DNA of 64,000 nucleotides from Candidatus Thorarchaeota archaeon (GTDB taxonomy: Archaea; Asgardarchaeota; Thorarchaeia; Thorarchaeales; Thorarchaeaceae): assembly GCA_048884965.1 (NCBI GenBank), contig JBHLQH010000013.1, positions 27,429 through 91,428 of the forward strand, written 5' to 3'. This document shows positions 2,511-9,771 of the stretch, in pieces. The notes under the pieces were generated by a model. The model searched no databases and was not told where the DNA came from. It worked only from the letters and a program-made list of their open reading frames with translations. Numbering within the stretch: position 1 is the stretch's first letter; each line of letters begins with the position of its first letter. Position numbers and translations under genes: made by a program.

Positions 2511-3359
2511 ATGTTTGCAACTAGAAATTCCAAGATCATTGCAGGTGCAATTCTGATAACTATCGTTATAGTAGCTCCAGCAATCTACTTGACATTCCTG
2601 AATCAGGGGACCTCACCGGTTATACCTCCTGATGATGATAATGACCCACTTGAGATTCCAGTGACCTCGGTCAACATCACACTCCTAGATACAGCAGGGG
2701 TAATGATTGAAGCCAACAATATCCGGATATACATCGACCCATATCGTATACCGAAGGACAACTTCTCAAACTTTCCTGCGGACCTGATACTCATTACTCA
2801 TGCACACGTTGACCATTATTCAGCCTCTGACATCAGAGATATCCAGAAGAATAGTACAATGGTCGTCTGTCCTGCAACTATGACGACCCAGCTTGAAAGA
2901 TACAATAATAGCTTGGGGGTTAAGCCCGGAGATAGTTTTCTGTACAGAGGCATCAACATTACTGCCTTTGATCTATATCTTGAGAACTATCCCTCAGGAG
3001 TTTTATCTGCACATCCGAAAGCCAATAATTGGACAAGTTATATCATCGATATCGATGGCTTTGTCATCTTCCATGCAGGTGATGCCAAATACATGGAGGA
3101 GTATGAAGACTTCACAGCAGAAGTAGATGTCGCACTCCTTCCAATCTACTATGATCCCGGATATGGAACCAAAGATGAATCGCTTGCACCCATTATCCAA
3201 GTTATTGAGGAGATACAGCCCAGCTATTGCATACCAACCCACTGGTACAATGAGGACAATGTTCTCTTCATGGATGAGTATGTACCATTCCTAGTTGATG
3301 ATTGCATAGTCATGAACTTGGATTTCTGGGAGTCACATGTATTCAGTAATGATAGCTAA
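2511..3359 (+). CDS. Membrane-anchored MBL-fold metallo-hydrolase
   Basis: N-terminal TM helix; IYIDP, THAHVDH, FHAGD and IPTHW motifs. Confidence 0.85.
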   Translation: MFATRNSKIIAGAILITIVIVAPAIYLTFLNQGTSPVIPPDDDNDPLEIPVTSVNITLLDTAGVMIEANNIRIYIDPYRIPKDNFSNFPADLILITHAHVDHYSASDIRDIQKNSTMVVCPATMTTQLERYNNSLGVKPGDSFLYRGINITAFDLYLENYPSGVLSAHPKANNWTSYIIDIDGFVIFHAGDAKYMEEYEDFTAEVDVALLPIYYDPGYGTKDESLAPIIQVIEEIQPSYCIPTHWYNEDNVLFMDEYVPFLVDDCIVMNLDFWESHVFSNDS

Positions 3360-3405
3360 GAGTATGGATTCTATATGAACAATGGACATGATTCTTACAG
3401 TCTTG

Positions 3406-3452
3406 GCAAAAAGAAAGAATGAAGGAAAGTGCGGGCGACCCTTGCGGGGTCG
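3406..3452 (-). terminator. GC hairpin plus pyrimidine tract ending the hdr-mvh-vhuU transcript
   Basis: On the minus strand CGACCC-CGCAA-GGGTCG (3452..3436) is followed by ACTTTCCTTCATTCTTTCTTTTT. Confidence 0.55.
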
Positions 3453-3486
3453 TCCAGCCCAACCCGAGTTTCGGTTGGACCTTCAT
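3452..3486 (-). promoter_or_regulatory. Eukaryote-like SECIS element
   Basis: Minus strand reads AUGAA-GGUCCAACC-GAAACUCG-GGUUGGGCU-GGAC: AUGA/GA non-Watson-Crick core, 9-bp stem with G-U pairs, unpaired AAA in the apical loop. Lies directly 3' of a gene with an in-frame TGA. Confidence 0.8.
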
Positions 3487-3647
3487 GCGCCGCCCAGCAC
3501 TAGATCCTTCCTGGCTATCTCGTGCAGTTCACCATCGTCATCCTCGCGAACGACGACCATGTGAGCCGCACATGATAGTCAGCAGTCATAGCAGCGTACG
3601 ACCATCTCGATGAGATTGAGTACGCCTTCCGGTATTTCGTCAGTCAT
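3483..3647 (-). CDS. vhuU: Selenocysteine-containing small subunit of a split [NiFeSe] hydrogenase, 54 aa: MTDEIPEGVLNLIEMVVRCYDCULSCAAHMVVVREDDDGELHEIARKDLVLGGA
   Basis: ATG at 3647 with a GGAG SD, just after the mvhA stop. In-frame TGA at 3581..3579 falls at the first ligand position of the L2 motif (RxYDxU/CxxCxxH). The upstream large subunit lacks this motif. SECIS follows. Confidence 0.93.
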
Positions 3648-3659
3648 CTTTCATTACTC

Positions 3660-4976
3660 CTAGGTCTTTACCAGTGGTTCGGGTAGTTTCAGACTATCGA
3701 GGGCTTTATCCTCGAAGATCTGCTTCGCTGCGGTCATGAGTGACTTCTCAATACCAGCGATGTTGTTATTCGTTGCAACGATGAGGTTTGCATGTACAAG
3801 CATCCCATCATCATCGCTGACGTAATTATGCATGAGGGTTCCTCTCGGGGCCTCAACGATGCCTACGCCATCTCCAGCCTTGGGCTCTACATCTGAGAGC
3901 TTGACATCCTTGCTTACGATCATTGGATCCTCCAAGAGAGTCTTGATCCATTCTGCTGCCTGCACTAGCTCAACGATACGTGCATAGTGGTACACAAAGG
4001 TGTGGTGTGATGGTCTACCGACAAGATCACGCATCTCCTTGAGCGCCGCATCTGCAAGAGGTGTTGCCATCTTGTCAGCGACATTACATCGAGCAAGCGT
4101 ATTGGCTCGCCAGATCCCATCAGGATATCCAGCAGGCTTGTAGTAGATATGGCTAGCATATGAATGTGGAGCGATGTGCTCGCCATAGTACTTTGTGTAG
4201 TCCTTTGGCTCGAAGTCAGCGACTATCTTACCGTTTGGATCCATAACGCGCACATTGCCATCATAGATGTCTAAGACACCGTTGTTCGTTAGACCAATGT
4301 AGTATGTTGGTGTTACAGCAACCTTAGTGATGACATCGATATATGCATTCACGACGGTCTTCGCAAGCTCGACAGTTTTAGTCACGTTCTCAAGCATCTC
4401 TGGTACTCGCTTCAGCCACTTATCACGATCTTCTTCAGGAAGGGCATGTAGCATTCCACCAGGAATTCCTGTAACAGGATGAACAGCCTTTGCACCAATA
4501 TCACGGATGAGTTCTTGGCCAAACTCCATGATCTTTATCGCTTGTACTGTCACATCAGGAAGGTGCTTCAGTACTGCTGCGACATTCCTCACTGACGGGT
4601 CAGCGAATGGACCGAACACAAAGTCAGGTGCTGCTAGAGCATAGAAGTGGATGGCATGAGATGAGAGCTGCTTGGCCTCAATCATCAATCGCCGTAGCTT
4701 TATTGCTGCTGGGGGTGGTTTGACGTCCCAAGCAGCCTCTACAGCTTTGATTGATGCCAAGTGGTGAGGAATTGGACAGATCCCACAGATTCGAGGAGCT
4801 ATCCTTGGCGCTTCCTCCATAGGACGACCAGTTAGGAACTTCTCGAAGAATCGCGTAGATCCAACATTGTATTGGATGTCTTTGACCTTGTTATCTTTCC
4901 CTAGCTTGATTGTCAGCGCACCGTGGCCCTCCATTCTTGTTACTGGGTCGATCTTTATCGTCTTCTCGTCAGACAT
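3660..4976 (-). CDS. mvhA: F420-non-reducing (group 3c) hydrogenase large subunit lacking the C-terminal Ni-binding motif (VhuA-type)
   Basis: IDPVTRMEGHG, RICGICPIPH (L1), EAPRGTLMH and NLIVATNNN present; ends at LPEPLVKT without DPCxxC. Confidence 0.93.
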   Translation of the reverse strand: MSDEKTIKIDPVTRMEGHGALTIKLGKDNKVKDIQYNVGSTRFFEKFLTGRPMEEAPRIAPRICGICPIPHHLASIKAVEAAWDVKPPPAAIKLRRLMIEAKQLSSHAIHFYALAAPDFVFGPFADPSVRNVAAVLKHLPDVTVQAIKIMEFGQELIRDIGAKAVHPVTGIPGGMLHALPEEDRDKWLKRVPEMLENVTKTVELAKTVVNAYIDVITKVAVTPTYYIGLTNNGVLDIYDGNVRVMDPNGKIVADFEPKDYTKYYGEHIAPHSYASHIYYKPAGYPDGIWRANTLARCNVADKMATPLADAALKEMRDLVGRPSHHTFVYHYARIVELVQAAEWIKTLLEDPMIVSKDVKLSDVEPKAGDGVGIVEAPRGTLMHNYVSDDDGMLVHANLIVATNNNIAGIEKSLMTAAKQIFEDKALDSLKLPEPLVKT

Positions 4977-5912
4977 CTATGCGACCTCCTTTGCGTGTTT
5001 CGCGTCTTCGCGCCTGATTCGCATGCGGTTCAAGTGACTTGTACCATAAGTGAATCTATAGAACATGCTTAGCGGATCCTTCACCTGCTCAACAAGCTTC
5101 TCTGGCTCCATAGGAGCATATGTTCCCAGCATTGATATTGCGGCAGCACCGAAATCTGAGGTGATTGGCGGAGGTGGTCCGAAGCAGCCACGACATGTGG
5201 CACCTTTGTTGACGCACTGCCCTTCGCATAGACCCCATGTACTTGAACCAACACAGATGTAGCCCTGTTCCAATAGGCATCGGTCATGGTCAGCATGACC
5301 AGTAAAGGGTCGCAGGATCTCAGAGATGGGTGTTTCCTTCTTCTCTCGAGAGCAGTAATGACAAACAGTATGAGGTGGTAGATCTAGAGGAGTTCCCGTC
5401 AAGAGGGAGTTGATAGCAGCTCCGATGAGCTTGGAAGTTGGAGGGCATCCAGGCAAGTAAATATCGAAATCTACATAGTCAGAGTTGGGTCTAACAACTG
5501 GCTCAATCTTTGGGATATTCACTGATGGAACCTTACCTCCACTGAATGTCTTGTTCTCTCTGTATTTCACATCATAACATTCTTCGATGTCTGATAGATT
5601 TGCCAATGCAGAAACGCTTCCGAAACATGCACATGAACCAAGGGCAACTAAAATCTTGCACTTGTCACGCATTATCTTCAGAAGATGTACATCCTCTTCT
5701 GTTCTCGCCATCCCTTCGAAGAAGCCAACGACAATTGACTTGTCCTCATATCCTTCGAGGTGATGGAGTTTGAAGTCCGCTACTGCTTGCCAATATTTGA
5801 TTTCTAATTTTGGTAGTACGTCTGCTAGTCCAAGATGAATGTCGACGAGGCTCTGATAGCATCCCCAACATGAGGAGCCTTGAGCCATTGCGACTGGTAC
5901 GGGATCACCCAT
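4977..5912 (-). CDS. mvhG: F420-non-reducing hydrogenase small Fe-S subunit
   Basis: SCWGC, GSCACFG, LPGCPP, VCHYC, CLLEQGYICVG and CRGCFGP motifs. Confidence 0.92.
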   Translation of the reverse strand: MGDPVPVAMAQGSSCWGCYQSLVDIHLGLADVLPKLEIKYWQAVADFKLHHLEGYEDKSIVVGFFEGMARTEEDVHLLKIMRDKCKILVALGSCACFGSVSALANLSDIEECYDVKYRENKTFSGGKVPSVNIPKIEPVVRPNSDYVDFDIYLPGCPPTSKLIGAAINSLLTGTPLDLPPHTVCHYCSREKKETPISEILRPFTGHADHDRCLLEQGYICVGSSTWGLCEGQCVNKGATCRGCFGPPPPITSDFGAAAISMLGTYAPMEPEKLVEQVKDPLSMFYRFTYGTSHLNRMRIRREDAKHAKEVA

Positions 5913-5914
5913 TT

Positions 5915-6148
5915 CTAGACCTCCTTAATGGCATAGACTAATTCGTGGTTTTCTTCTCCAGCGACTTCGACATCACCCCACTTGAGCATCCCCATCAGGT
6001 TCCAGACAACCAGTTCTTGGGACAACTCAGTTTTCTTGGAAATCAAAGCCACCGTGTTTGCGCCGCCGTTCAATGCCTCTTTTATTGTTTTGCGTTGCTT
6101 ACGCACATCACTGTGCTTTTGCTCAAAATAAGTTGCAAACCGTCTCAT
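5915..6148 (-). CDS. Small winged-helix protein inside the mvh operon
   Basis: wHTH-like pattern (IKEALNGGANTVALISKKTELSQELVVWNLMGMLKWG); ATG at 6148 overlaps the mvhD stop (ATGA). Confidence 0.7.
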   Translation of the reverse strand: MRRFATYFEQKHSDVRKQRKTIKEALNGGANTVALISKKTELSQELVVWNLMGMLKWGDVEVAGEENHELVYAIKEV

Positions 6149-6588
6149 CGCCACTCCCTCTCTATTGGTCCAAGTTCCTTGACTTGGTCTACAAGTGTTC
6201 TAACTCCATCTGCGAATATCTGAGCCTCAGAGGCACTTGCCCACTGAAGACGAACTCGCTTGGGATTAACACCTGATTGTTCTATGACCTTCTCCATCAA
6301 TGCCCATCGTGCTCTAGCTTTCAGATTACCACTGGTATAGTGACAATCTCCAGGGTGACACCCGCTGACTAGCACGCCATCAGCGCCCATATCCAAGGCT
6401 GCGAGGATGAACTCCACATCAATCCTGCCTGTGCAGTTAACGCGGAGAATCCTTGCATTGGGAGGGTACTGAATACGAGATGTACCAGCTAGGTCTGCTC
6501 CTGCATACGAGCACCAGTTGCAGCAATATGCGATAATACGAGGTTCCCAACCTAGATAGGGTGCCTTGGCTGTTGCAGCTGCGGTCAT
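6145..6588 (-). CDS. mvhD: Hydrogenase [2Fe-2S] subunit MvhD (Cys form)
   Basis: CCNWCSYAGADLAG, CTGRID, GADGVLVSGCHPGDCHY and WASASEA motifs. Confidence 0.95.
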   Translation of the reverse strand: MTAAATAKAPYLGWEPRIIAYCCNWCSYAGADLAGTSRIQYPPNARILRVNCTGRIDVEFILAALDMGADGVLVSGCHPGDCHYTSGNLKARARWALMEKVIEQSGVNPKRVRLQWASASEAQIFADGVRTLVDQVKELGPIEREWR

Positions 6589-8369
6589 TATGCTCCACCT
6601 CCTACAGAGGGTTCTAGCGTAGGACAGAGGAACGCCTCCACCATTGCTAGAATCTGTTCATTGGTTGAGTGTAGCATAACGATTGCACTACTTGGGCAGG
6701 CCGCGGCACAGGTGCCACATCCATGACACTTTGCCTCAGTCACATAGGCAATGTGTGGATCATGGGAATCATCCCAAGTTATCGCACCGTAGGGACATGC
6801 AGTCAGGCAGGTGGCACAAGAGGAACAGAGTTCTGGAATGACTCTTGATACAGTCGATTCAATCTCGACTGCTCCTTTTGCCATAAGACCGACAGCTTTT
6901 GCTGCAGCACCACTTGCGTCGATGACTGCCTCAGAGGCGTTCTTCGCAGCTTGAGCCGCTCCAGCTATCATAATCCCAGCAGTATGAGTCGTAACAGGAT
7001 TCAGCTTGACATGTTCGGGATTGAAGAAGCCATCACCACTACGCGTGAGGCTGAAGGTATGACCTACATCCTCGATGCCCTCAGGTGGAACCATCGCTGA
7101 TGCAAGGACCAGAATATCAGGGCTGAATTCCAGATCTGTATCACCAAGGACATCCCTCCAAGTCACTGTAATCTTTCCACGCTTTACATCGACTTCAGGT
7201 TTCTCACCAGCTGGGAATTTCGTATAGATGACATGTTTCTTTCTGGCAATCCTCTGGAAGTCCTCATGGTCCTTACCGTAAGTTCTGATGTCTTGGTATA
7301 GGATGAGGGATTCATCCAGCTTATCGGCCATGATTCCAGCGGTCTTTGCTAAAGCACTACAACAGTATCGTGAGCAGTGCTCATGACCTTTCTGACCAGC
7401 CTCTCGAGACCCAACACATCCAATGTAGGCAATCTTCTTGACAGGCTTACCATCACTAGGACGAATATATTGCTCTGCGTCGGGCTTTGATTGAAGCTCT
7501 GCTAGAGTCATTATATCTGGAGTTTTTCCGTATCCGTACAATCCTGTTGGAATATAGGGTTGGAATCCTGTCGCCACAATCACTGTTCCAATCTGATATT
7601 TCTTTGGAGCTTTCTGGCCTTCAACGGCAATCTCTGCCTCGAAGTTACCAACGTAGCCCTCAAAGTTCTCAATTCTCGCGCCAGTCTTGACCTCTATCTT
7701 CTTGTGTTTCTTCACACGATCGATTAATGGCTTCAAGACTTCAGAACCGGGTTTATCCCCAGGGAACATATGGGACCACTTACGAACGTTGCCGCCAAGC
7801 TCCGAGTCGCGTTCGACTAGTACAACCTCGAACCCACGATCAGCAACATCCAGCGCTGCACGAAGTCCAGCAATTCCACCACCAACAATCAAGACTCGTG
7901 GGGTAATCTGAACGGTCTTAATCGGTAATGATTCGAGATTTGCAGCACGAGCAACTGACATTCGTACGAGGTCTTTCGCTTTCTCAGTAGCTTCCTCAGG
8001 TTGCCGCATATGGCACCAGGAAACATGCTCTCGCAGGTTGACCTGATCGAACAGATACCTGTTCAGTCCAGCCTCTTCGACCACTCTCCTGAAGGTGGGC
8101 TCATGCATTCGTGGGGAGCAACTCGCCACAACGACGCGATTCAGATTATGCTCTGCGATCTTCGTTCGAATGGTTTCTTGTCCTGCATCACTACAGGTGA
8201 ACATCTCATGGGTTGTGAATACTACATTAGGTAGCTTCGCTGCAGCTTCTGCAACCTCAGCTACATCGACAACTCCTGCGATGTTGTGGCCGCAGTGGCA
8301 CACAAACACACCTATGCGCGGTTCCGCCGAGGTGTCGGCGGCCTTGATTTCTACACTGCCTTCAGTCAT
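6588..8369 (-). CDS. hdrA: Heterodisulfide reductase subunit A-like protein (N-terminal Fe-S domain, FAD domain, C-terminal ferredoxin; no inserted ferredoxin)
   Basis: RIGVFVCHCGHNI, SCSPRMHE, NLREHVSW, GGGIAG, CVGSR, CSRYCC and two C-terminal CxxCxxCxxxCP motifs. Likely start 8369 (TAATG overlap with hdrB, GGGGTGAG SD). Confidence 0.9.
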   Translation of the reverse strand: MTEGSVEIKAADTSAEPRIGVFVCHCGHNIAGVVDVAEVAEAAAKLPNVVFTTHEMFTCSDAGQETIRTKIAEHNLNRVVVASCSPRMHEPTFRRVVEEAGLNRYLFDQVNLREHVSWCHMRQPEEATEKAKDLVRMSVARAANLESLPIKTVQITPRVLIVGGGIAGLRAALDVADRGFEVVLVERDSELGGNVRKWSHMFPGDKPGSEVLKPLIDRVKKHKKIEVKTGARIENFEGYVGNFEAEIAVEGQKAPKKYQIGTVIVATGFQPYIPTGLYGYGKTPDIMTLAELQSKPDAEQYIRPSDGKPVKKIAYIGCVGSREAGQKGHEHCSRYCCSALAKTAGIMADKLDESLILYQDIRTYGKDHEDFQRIARKKHVIYTKFPAGEKPEVDVKRGKITVTWRDVLGDTDLEFSPDILVLASAMVPPEGIEDVGHTFSLTRSGDGFFNPEHVKLNPVTTHTAGIMIAGAAQAAKNASEAVIDASGAAAKAVGLMAKGAVEIESTVSRVIPELCSSCATCLTACPYGAITWDDSHDPHIAYVTEAKCHGCGTCAAACPSSAIVMLHSTNEQILAMVEAFLCPTLEPSVGGGA

Positions 8370-9241
8370 TAGCTCACCCCACAACAATCAATAATCGAGT
8401 GCGGATCGATCTTGTTCAGTTCAACTCCAAGTATATCCTCATTGATACCCAGCGCAGGGCCTAGGAACTGCGGAATAGGTAGAACAGGAATCTTCTTCCT
8501 GCTACCTGCACGGTCACCAAACTGCACCTGAGTGAGTTGGATATCGCAGAATACACATGCAGTCACGATTCCATCTGCACCAGTTCGTGCGATATTGTCG
8601 ATTTTATCGAGCCCTATAGTGGCTGCAACGGCTTCATCCATTGCCAACATGGGACCACCGCAACAACGAGTCTTGCCAGGATAGTCAACAGCAGTTGCAC
8701 CTACTGCCTCGACTAGACGGTCCAGAATTGTAGGATTCTCGGGATCATCGACTTGCACGATCTCGTATGGCCGGGTTACGTGACATCCATAGTGAGCAGC
8801 AAGCTTCACTCCGTTATACGGTTTGACGACAGCTCGTTCGATGGCATCGAATCCAATGTCATCTGCGAGGACTTGGAGTAAATGACGGACCCGAACTTTC
8901 CCAGTGTATTTGAGCCCCTCCTCAGCTAGGAGTGAGTTCACTTCGTCTCGGGCACGGATGTCATGGTCAAGCAAGTACTTGTTCGTCTTTAAAGACCCAG
9001 AGCATGCACCACAGAGTGCAAGGATATCTTTCTCTTCTCTCTCCGCAAGAGCAAGAATTCTTCCACTCATTGCAGCATATGCCATCCTGTCCATAGATTC
9101 CACATATTGAGCTCCGCAGCAGTTCGTGTCTTTCATCTCTGTGATCTTGACACCCAACTTCTTCAGTACTGCAATAGTCGCGGCTTCATACCCAGGAAGT
9201 CGTACTGGAGTAGTACAACCTCTGTACAGCAGAAGTTCCAT
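8369..9241 (-). CDS. hdrB: Heterodisulfide reductase subunit B
   Basis: Two CCG domains (YRGC..NCCG..CGAC; HYGCH..RCCGG..ACVFC). Confidence 0.92.
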   Translation of the reverse strand: MELLLYRGCTTPVRLPGYEAATIAVLKKLGVKITEMKDTNCCGAQYVESMDRMAYAAMSGRILALAEREEKDILALCGACSGSLKTNKYLLDHDIRARDEVNSLLAEEGLKYTGKVRVRHLLQVLADDIGFDAIERAVVKPYNGVKLAAHYGCHVTRPYEIVQVDDPENPTILDRLVEAVGATAVDYPGKTRCCGGPMLAMDEAVAATIGLDKIDNIARTGADGIVTACVFCDIQLTQVQFGDRAGSRKKIPVLPIPQFLGPALGINEDILGVELNKIDPHSIIDCCGVS

Positions 9242-9771
9242 TATGCTACCGCCTCCTCTTTCATCTTCTTTCGTTGGAAGTATCTCTTCTTGACTTTCTC
9301 GACAAAGTCATGATTCATCTCAAGATTGGGATTCAGTCCAAGGTCTTCCCTGTCCTCCTCTTGGAAGTCAGTATAGGAATCCTTCAACAGCCATCCATCT
9401 TCCAGTACAGTATCGACAGTGTCCCTGAAGACCCTTGGTATGTGACCTTCTCGTGCAGCAATGACACGAACTGCATGGAAGATCTCTGCGGGAGAAACGC
9501 CTTCCTGACATCGCTCCTCACACATCCTGCAGTTCAGACATAGCCATGATTGATCACTGCCCAGCACCTCCTCGCGCTTTCCTAGAATGATCTTCTGGAT
9601 CATTCGACGGGGACGATAGAGGTCATTGGCATTGGCAACAACACAGCTGGCTGTGCAGATACCACATTGTACGCACTTATTGATCGCATCACCGCCTTCT
9701 TCCATTGCCACCTCTCTGGCAAAATTGGAATTGGGTACATGAACGGATTTTGGTTTGATTTCTGTAGTCAT
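9241..9771 (-). CDS. hdrC: Heterodisulfide reductase subunit C
   Basis: CVQCGICTASC and WLCLNCRMCEERC motifs; sits between hdrA and hdrB. Confidence 0.92.
   Translation of the reverse strand: MTTEIKPKSVHVPNSNFAREVAMEEGGDAINKCVQCGICTASCVVANANDLYRPRRMIQKIILGKREEVLGSDQSWLCLNCRMCEERCQEGVSPAEIFHAVRVIAAREGHIPRVFRDTVDTVLEDGWLLKDSYTDFQEEDREDLGLNPNLEMNHDFVEKVKKRYFQRKKMKEEAVA

Follow-up and report, generated by a model that had tools for sequence, protein, structure and literature searches.

The short gene vhuU, on the minus strand of the window (the whole stretch of 64,000 nucleotides that was analysed), very probably encodes a genuine selenocysteine (Sec)-containing VhuU, which would complete a split [NiFeSe] hydrogenase together with VhuA. 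The proposal of the first-pass annotation that an in-frame UGA is recoded as Sec in a separate VhuU is supported by the Sec machinery of the genome, by a SECIS element, by the presence of TGA in 53 of 53 related genes, and by alignment of the codon to Cys or X in solved chains. Because ordinary gene callers halt at UGA, the large subunit at such a locus seems truncated and the hydrogenase seems dead; vhuU is a genuine gene that these callers have probably missed.

Organization of the Hydrogenase Locus

The features of the hydrogenase and Hdr gene cluster are as follows.

3483..3647, minus strand: vhuU coding sequence, 54 codons plus stop, ATG at 3647; predicted precursor of a small Sec-containing subunit carrying the C-terminal Ni-ligand motif
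3579..3581, minus strand: in-frame UGA, the predicted Sec codon (codon 23 of vhuU), where DPCxxCxxH has its terminal Ni-ligating Cys
3561..3587, minus strand: Ni-ligand motif D-C-U-L-S-C-A-A-H, VhuU residues 21-29, from translation and alignment to solved chains
3486..3560, minus strand: C-terminal extension of VhuU, 25 residues after His29, predicted to be removed by a maturation endopeptidase after Ni insertion
3657..3661, minus strand: AGGAG, Shine-Dalgarno-like, read from the sequence; overlaps the vhuA stop and lies 9 nt before the vhuU ATG
3660..4976, minus strand: vhuA, [NiFe(Se)] hydrogenase large subunit without the C-terminal Ni-ligand segment, 438 aa, PF00374, best PDB match 9sfi_g
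4977..5912, minus strand: vhuG/mvhG, hydrogenase small subunit, PF01058, best NCBIfam match NF045875 VhuG
6145..6588, minus strand: mvhD/vhuD, delta subunit, Cys form, PF02662 (E 3e-51), translation without in-frame TGA
6588..8387, minus strand: hdrA-like flavoprotein gene (Pfam), upstream of vhuU in the same orientation
8369..9241, minus strand: hdrB-like gene for a CCG protein (Pfam), upstream in the same orientation
9241..9771, minus strand: hdrC-like ferredoxin gene (Fer4; Pfam), upstream in the same orientation

The vhuA translation contains PRICGICP near the N-terminus and has no C-terminal CxxC motif ahead of its TAG stop at 3662..3660, in agreement with the earlier claim that the large subunit possesses RICGIC but not the C-terminal Ni-binding motif. 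Among PDB entries VhuA comes closest to 9sfi_g, a split VhuA chain of 418 aa, with an E value of 2e-130 across residues 7-421, and VhuA covers just residues 4-414 of the fused 473-residue MvhA 5odc_F. The vhuU ATG is spaced 12 nt from the vhuA stop, and vhuU has its own Shine-Dalgarno sequence and start codon. Its frame reads M-T-D-E-I-P-E-G-V-L-N-L-I-E-M-V-V-R-C-Y-D-C up to codon 22, passes through the TGA at 3581..3579 into L-S-C-A-A-H, of which the His is residue 29, continues for 25 more residues, and terminates at a second TGA at 3485..3483 (minus strand). Translation thereby bears out the ORF that had been described 12 nt downstream of the large subunit (...RCYDC-U-LSCAAH..., with the in-frame TGA), and all of the coordinates and counts given earlier for vhuA, vhuU and the TGA were correct when re-read from the sequence.

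MvhD, MvhG and HdrABC-like genes adjoin vhuA and vhuU, which is the context of a group 3c [NiFe] hydrogenase (Mvh/Vhu type, Hdr-linked). Also upstream in the same orientation, Pfam identifies a second and larger HdrA/NfnB-like gene. The top NCBIfam families for the three hydrogenase genes are VhuU (NF041786), VhuA (NF041785) and VhuG (NF045875); the equivalog cut-offs of these families are tuned to Methanococcales, and all three matches fall below them, that of VhuA to NF041785 having 490 bits against a cut-off of 800.

The mvhD and hdrA-like genes (6145-8387, minus strand) are Cys forms with no in-frame TGA, although HdrA/VhuD pairs are often multi-Sec in Asgard archaea. An additional ORF of about 77 codons is present at 5915-6154 (minus strand), between mvhD and vhuG, ending 2 nt before the vhuG ATG. 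This ORF is kept in 44 related loci at 37-76% identity, with the motif W-N-L-x-G-M-L-[RK]-W-G, and belongs to no Pfam family; it may encode a small accessory protein for the operon, winged-helix-like in character.

VhuU Matches the C-Terminal Segment of Solved Hydrogenase Large Subunits

With Cys read at the TGA, a PDB search aligned VhuU to the 26-28 residues that precede the processing site in 7t2r_D, 5odc_F and 9sw2_F, the match to 5odc_F corresponding to its residues 426-451. VhuU also matched, over 26 residues, the separate 27-residue VhuU chain 9sfi_M, which is deposited as 'F420 non-reducing hydrogenase subunit' and ends one residue beyond the motif His. E values for these matches to solved Mvh/Vhu chains ranged from 2.5e-5 to 8e-5. 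In 7t2r_D, 5odc_F and 9sw2_F the TGA is aligned with the first Cys of D-P-C-L-S-C, and in 9sfi_M with the X of D-P-X-Y-S-C-A-A-H. The assignment of the TGA to the Ni-ligand position of a split [NiFeSe] hydrogenase, as first put forward, is thus borne out by solved chains that have Cys or X there. Because the peptide matches the C-termini of solved Mvh/Vhu large subunits and 9sfi_M, the vhuU ORF is not a product of chance.

The best NCBIfam match of VhuU was to NF041786 VhuU (E 7.6e-16). Its 57.7 bits do not reach the curated cut-off of 70 bits, which is tuned to methanococcal proteins, and the peptide is therefore a VhuU in the broad sense of the Asgard literature rather than the methanococcal equivalog. 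A Pfam search with the 55-aa VhuU peptide alone gave no match.

The In-Frame TGA Is Invariant in Related vhuU Genes

The nearest loci in a collection of species-representative genomes are nearly all labelled Thorarchaeota, with VhuA identities of 78-91%, followed by Helarchaeota and Atabeyarchaeia at approximately 60%. We compared 53 vhuU genes from Thor-, Hel- and Atabey-type MAGs. All 53 have TGA at the Sec codon, Cys before Sec, and TGA as the stop codon, and the Ni-ligand motif is invariant save for A/G at one position. In the six codons of the motif, minor-allele counts at codon positions 1/2/3 after the TGA were 0/16/72; in the tail, for 43 vhuU genes of equal length, they were 112/51/230. 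Variation past the TGA is thus chiefly at third positions, indicating a translated frame under purifying selection. A loss of conservation after the TGA had been named beforehand as an outcome that would speak against recoding; in the 53 relatives the residues there are strongly kept.

A VhuU match was found in 155 of 301 sampled genomes of the phylum and, among the matches listed, nearly all have exactly one TGA; genomes of the same genus also carry vhuU. In Bathyarchaeia and some Asgard MAGs, the distant homologues are fused proteins whose motif is D-P-C with Cys. Three split paralogues in the phylum have Cys at the Sec position (D-C-C), the codon of L103 being read as TGT, and no AUGA element is found behind the stop in these three. 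In two Cys-type split VhuU genes, L102 (G069:C63) and L104 (G064:C227), the motif ends in Phe rather than His (S-C-S-A-F), which would alter the usual recognition and cleavage site of the endopeptidase.

Several VhuA genes of related MAGs (L048, L056, L057, L059, L061, L063 and L070), mostly of a paralogue class with about 68% identity, have no vhuU within 330 nt downstream. Their partner VhuU may be encoded elsewhere, or they may be inactive. The genome studied here contains a second vhuA/vhuU pair at G000:C58:11371-12887 (L082/L087; 69% and 84% identity), the vhuU of which has its own in-frame TGA and a SECIS scoring 58.8 bits.

A SECIS Element Begins at the vhuU Stop Codon

Two structured elements were delimited at the 3' end of vhuU.

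3452..3486, minus strand: SECIS element, Asgard/eukaryote-like type I, from alignment, RNAalifold and a covariance model
3437..3451, minus strand: predicted, conserved second hairpin directly 3' of the SECIS, with a CGCAA loop on a stem of 4-5 bp; structure prediction for 34 sequences gives 4 pairs, the outermost of which switches between AU and GC in 5

The AUGA core of the SECIS (3486..3483) includes the vhuU stop codon and is followed by a single A and then by a 9-bp stem in which 3481..3473 pairs with 3464..3456; the 3' side of the core, G-GA-C, occupies 3455..3452, with the GA at 3454..3453. The distance from the Sec codon to the AUGA is 92 nt. The apical loop, GAAACUCG, is 8 nt long, the lower limit of the published 8-20 nt model, and its AAA is kept in the alignment. 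Published lokiSECIS criteria call for 7-15 bp in the upper stem (Loki has 9) and for an apical loop of 8-20 nt that opens with unpaired adenines. The element has the make-up of an Asgard type I SECIS (lokiSECIS), with an AUGA/GA core, a covarying 9-bp stem and an A-rich loop, just after the stop.

Covariation was assessed in 34 aligned SECIS sequences. The AUGA is invariant in all of these, and the 3' GA is GA in 33 and AA in one. Within the stem 90.2% of cells are paired, a share that falls to 24-46% if the 3' partner is shifted by 1-3 columns; all nine pairs show compensatory double changes, and none of 500 shuffles reached the observed covariation score. At stem positions 3457 and 3458, strain variants turn G-C into G-U and U-G into U-A; neither breaks the pairing. 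A covariance model (R1) built from vhuU SECIS elements and their flanks scored 62 bits at the vhuU SECIS and elsewhere in the genome matched the element of the C58 paralogue alone. The R1 search detected no SECIS at selD, which is expected since the published selD SECIS is of type II. A search of the window against Rfam at gathering thresholds gave no match, Rfam apparently having no model that captures the Asgard SECIS.

A conserved pyrimidine/T-rich tract at 3400..3430 (minus strand), after the second hairpin, probably ends the transcript. The public runs listed as containing the sequence included no RNA dataset. A scan of 3300..3700 for sigma-70 promoters and intrinsic terminators, which is not designed for archaea, found nothing. 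A conserved CUCCUUC(C)AU tract within 3400-3451 (minus strand) is complementary to AUGAAGG of the SECIS core and is paired with it in the minimum free energy fold of the window; this predicted pairing might form a lower helix or an alternative structure.

Contig depth is raised at 3414..3470, and a genomic repeat was considered for this interval and rejected, as a pattern search of the genome gave one other, degenerate copy on C58; the extra depth is due to related strains that share the conserved 3' UTR. The degenerate copy (G000:C58:13722-13747; L082 2504-2543) lies about 830 nt downstream of the second vhuU, past a gene encoded on the other strand. The GGGCUGGACGACCCCGCAA part is present in it as well, but it has AUGG in place of AUGA and looks like a SECIS relic.

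The Genome Encodes the Machinery for Sec Synthesis and Insertion

The first-pass annotation had called for a search of the genome for Sec machinery, and tRNA-Sec, PSTK, SepSecS, EFSec and SelD were all present in the assembly to which the window belongs (an uncultured MAG of 4.09 Mb, 96% complete, 7% contamination). The tRNA-Sec scored 55.6 bits, above the Rfam cut-off, and has a TCA anticodon. Matches of 437 bits and 280 bits were obtained for SepSecS and for an EFSec/SelB homologue, respectively. EFSec, SepSecS, tRNA-Sec and PSTK are clustered within 4.3 kb (G000:C43:16684-20922). SelD, on contig C15, is itself a selenoprotein with Sec in T-H-G-U-S-C-K, and a HycI-family maturation protease is also encoded in the genome. 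Since the bin is 7% contaminated, the presence in one cell of the machinery on C43 and of the vhuU contig, C13, is probable but not proven. A third hydrogenase large subunit, on contig C3, had been a candidate on account of 'one TGA inside', and was set aside as an ordinary fused Cys form (DPCVSCSVH) in which the TGA is the stop.

Alternative Readings of the UGA Codon

One rival reading of the locus is that the TGA is a true stop, with vhuA decaying and truncated and the downstream frame a relic of a formerly fused large subunit. The table 11 frame does end after 22 codons, and vhuU is missing from the 330 nt downstream of some VhuA paralogues in relatives. A relic, however, would not be expected to retain TGA in 53/53 orthologues across several Asgard classes, nor to vary mostly at third positions over the 31 codons past the TGA, and the locus has a covarying SECIS 3' of the gene in a genome with full Sec machinery; we consider decay to be highly improbable. 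The TGA could alternatively be a sequencing or assembly error for TGC or TGT in a Cys form of VhuU, and a split VhuU of the Cys type does exist in the phylum (TGT in L103). We looked for such codons in contigs of four sediment runs covering 3300..5000 and found no difference at 3579..3581, TGA being kept in all. All of these Logan contigs come from a single study, in which one run is possibly the source sample, so they provide weak independent support. Contigs of diverged strains also keep the TGA, and differ from vhuU at eight sites, all of them third codon positions, with two downstream of the TGA. Given in addition the 53/53 orthologues with TGA, and an AUGA SECIS that is present at vhuU but absent from the Cys forms, an error at this codon has almost no probability.

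Read-through of the UGA without Sec-tRNA(Sec) would yield the same 54-residue frame, either by near-cognate insertion of Cys or Trp or by a general reassignment of UGA in the lineage. The inserted residue has been identified experimentally in no Asgard archaeon, which leaves this reading some room. General reassignment is contradicted by the use of UGA to end vhuU in 53/53 cases and to end another large-subunit gene on C3. Near-cognate insertion, for its part, would take place in a genome with a dedicated tRNA-Sec, PSTK, SepSecS, EFSec and SECIS, and at a position that is the canonical Sec/Cys site of [NiFeSe] enzymes. Read-through of this kind is very unlikely, and we favor recoding of the UGA as Sec.

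A Cys Residue Precedes Sec in Split Asgard VhuU

The Ni-ligand segment of the 53 split Asgard VhuU genes (loci L012-L074) reads D-C-U (3579-3596, minus strand, in vhuU), and the three Cys-type split paralogues read D-C-C. Fused Cys homologues and every solved enzyme that was matched have D-P-C/U at this site. Most of the split sequences have a further Cys right behind the conserved Arg (R-C-Y). The invariant Cys before Sec is the less-trodden point of an otherwise known system. From the sequence pattern, we speculate that the vicinal Cys-Sec pair could provide an extra thiol by the selenolate; a reversible selenenylsulfide, for example, might then shield the free peptide or the Ni site, though we regard such a role as rather unlikely. 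The proposal, if true, would mark Asgard Vhu as a variant of [NiFeSe] hydrogenase with a distinct chemistry. The main text of Mariotti et al. (2016, PMC4989117), the one paper covered on this point, makes no mention of the Pro replacement or of a selenenylsulfide.

Comparison with Published Systems

A split Sec-containing VhuU with a SECIS is already published for Asgard (Thor/Loki) archaea (Mariotti et al. 2016, PMC4989117; Huang et al. 2024, PMC11227280), and the present finding is therefore a correct re-discovery. The selenoproteins reported for Lokiarchaeota are VhuU, VhuD, HdrA, SPS and PrxL, and their SECIS, situated near the stop, is described as combining AUGA with a stem of 9 bp and an 11-nt loop rich in A (PMC4989117). 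In VhuU.1 of Loki the AUGA doubles as the UGA stop, and it was argued that a UGA so near the SECIS is unrecodable (PMC4989117). In a survey of more than 400 Asgard genomes, Sec was used by 77% of Thorarchaeia, the MvhA/VhuU family was a selenoprotein in 68% of Sec-using Asgard archaea, and a loop variant G[U/G]AAA was described for the SECIS of Thorarchaeia (PMC11227280). A paper on Atabeyarchaeia and Freyarchaeia lists a 'small subunit (~50 aa) of NiFeSec (VhuU)' (PMC11291895), and a 2026 review places MvhA/VhuA/VhuU under NF041786 with a UxxC motif.

The locus described here resembles the Asgard VhuU/VhuA systems in its short ORF (about 50 aa) containing one Sec, in its archaeal/eukaryotic-type Sec machinery, and in the AUGA_GA SECIS with a 9-bp stem and an A-rich loop right after the gene, the AUGA serving as the stop as in Loki VhuU.1. 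The GNAAA-like loop start of the Thorarchaeia 'frhA' SECIS fits the relatives of this vhuU. Two differences were noted: the apical loop in this genus is 8 nt, not the 11 nt of the Loki SECIS, and the tail past the His is 25 aa, with an EDDDGELHE-type insertion, whereas it is 21 aa in most Thorarchaeota VhuU.

Methanococcales (9sfi, chains M and g) divide their large subunit at the same point and likewise have a small peptide containing Sec-x-x-Cys-x-x-His. The methanococcal peptide, however, has D-P-U where D-C-U is found here, its SECIS is of the GAA_A type rather than the AUGA_GA kink-turn type, and the host here is not a methanogen. Of the Methanococcales VhuA/VhuU model invoked by the first-pass annotation, the split and the Sec thus stand, but the methanococcal type does not, the host being a Thorarchaeota-like Asgard archaeon with a eukaryote-like SECIS and not the GAA_A form. 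The fused MvhA enzymes (5odc_F, 9sw2_F and 7t2r_D) have in common with this system that they are group-3c enzymes in an MvhD/MvhG/Hdr context, but theirs is one polypeptide with Cys (DPCLSC), compared to two genes and Sec here.

Proposed Assembly of the Hydrogenase

The following model would account for the locus. In this Thorarchaeota-like Asgard archaeon, vhuU closes the gene cluster hdr-mvhD-vhuG-vhuA-vhuU, and codon 23, a UGA, of its 54-residue precursor would be read as Sec; the incorporation of Se is what we infer from the sequence data. Recoding would be directed by the kink-turn-type SECIS at the 3' end of the mRNA, starting 92 nt past the Sec codon, and the gene's own UGA stop, inside the AUGA core, would be too near the SECIS to be recoded. 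Sec-tRNA(Sec) would be made by the archaeal/eukaryotic route, with SerRS, PSTK, SepSecS and selenophosphate from SelD, and would be delivered by EFSec.

The roles of the ligands, the removal of the tail and the path of the electrons are drawn from what is known of [NiFe] hydrogenase maturation and of methanococcal VhuU. Sec23 and Cys26 of VhuU (D-C-U-x-x-C-x-x-H), together with the RICGIC pair of VhuA, would form the Ni-Fe site. A HycI-type endopeptidase probably removes the approximately 25 residues past His29 after Ni insertion, which would leave a peptide of about 29 aa on VhuA. In the resulting group-3c [NiFeSe] hydrogenase, electrons would pass through VhuG and MvhD to an Hdr-like flavoprotein complex.

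The main worth of the finding is the correction of an annotation, together with one more well-supported eukaryote-like SECIS in Asgard archaea, for which strong covariation data are available. On the reading favored here, the locus would encode a [NiFeSe] enzyme in full, one linked to a bifurcating Hdr-like complex, which bears on reconstructions of H2 metabolism in Thorarchaeota.
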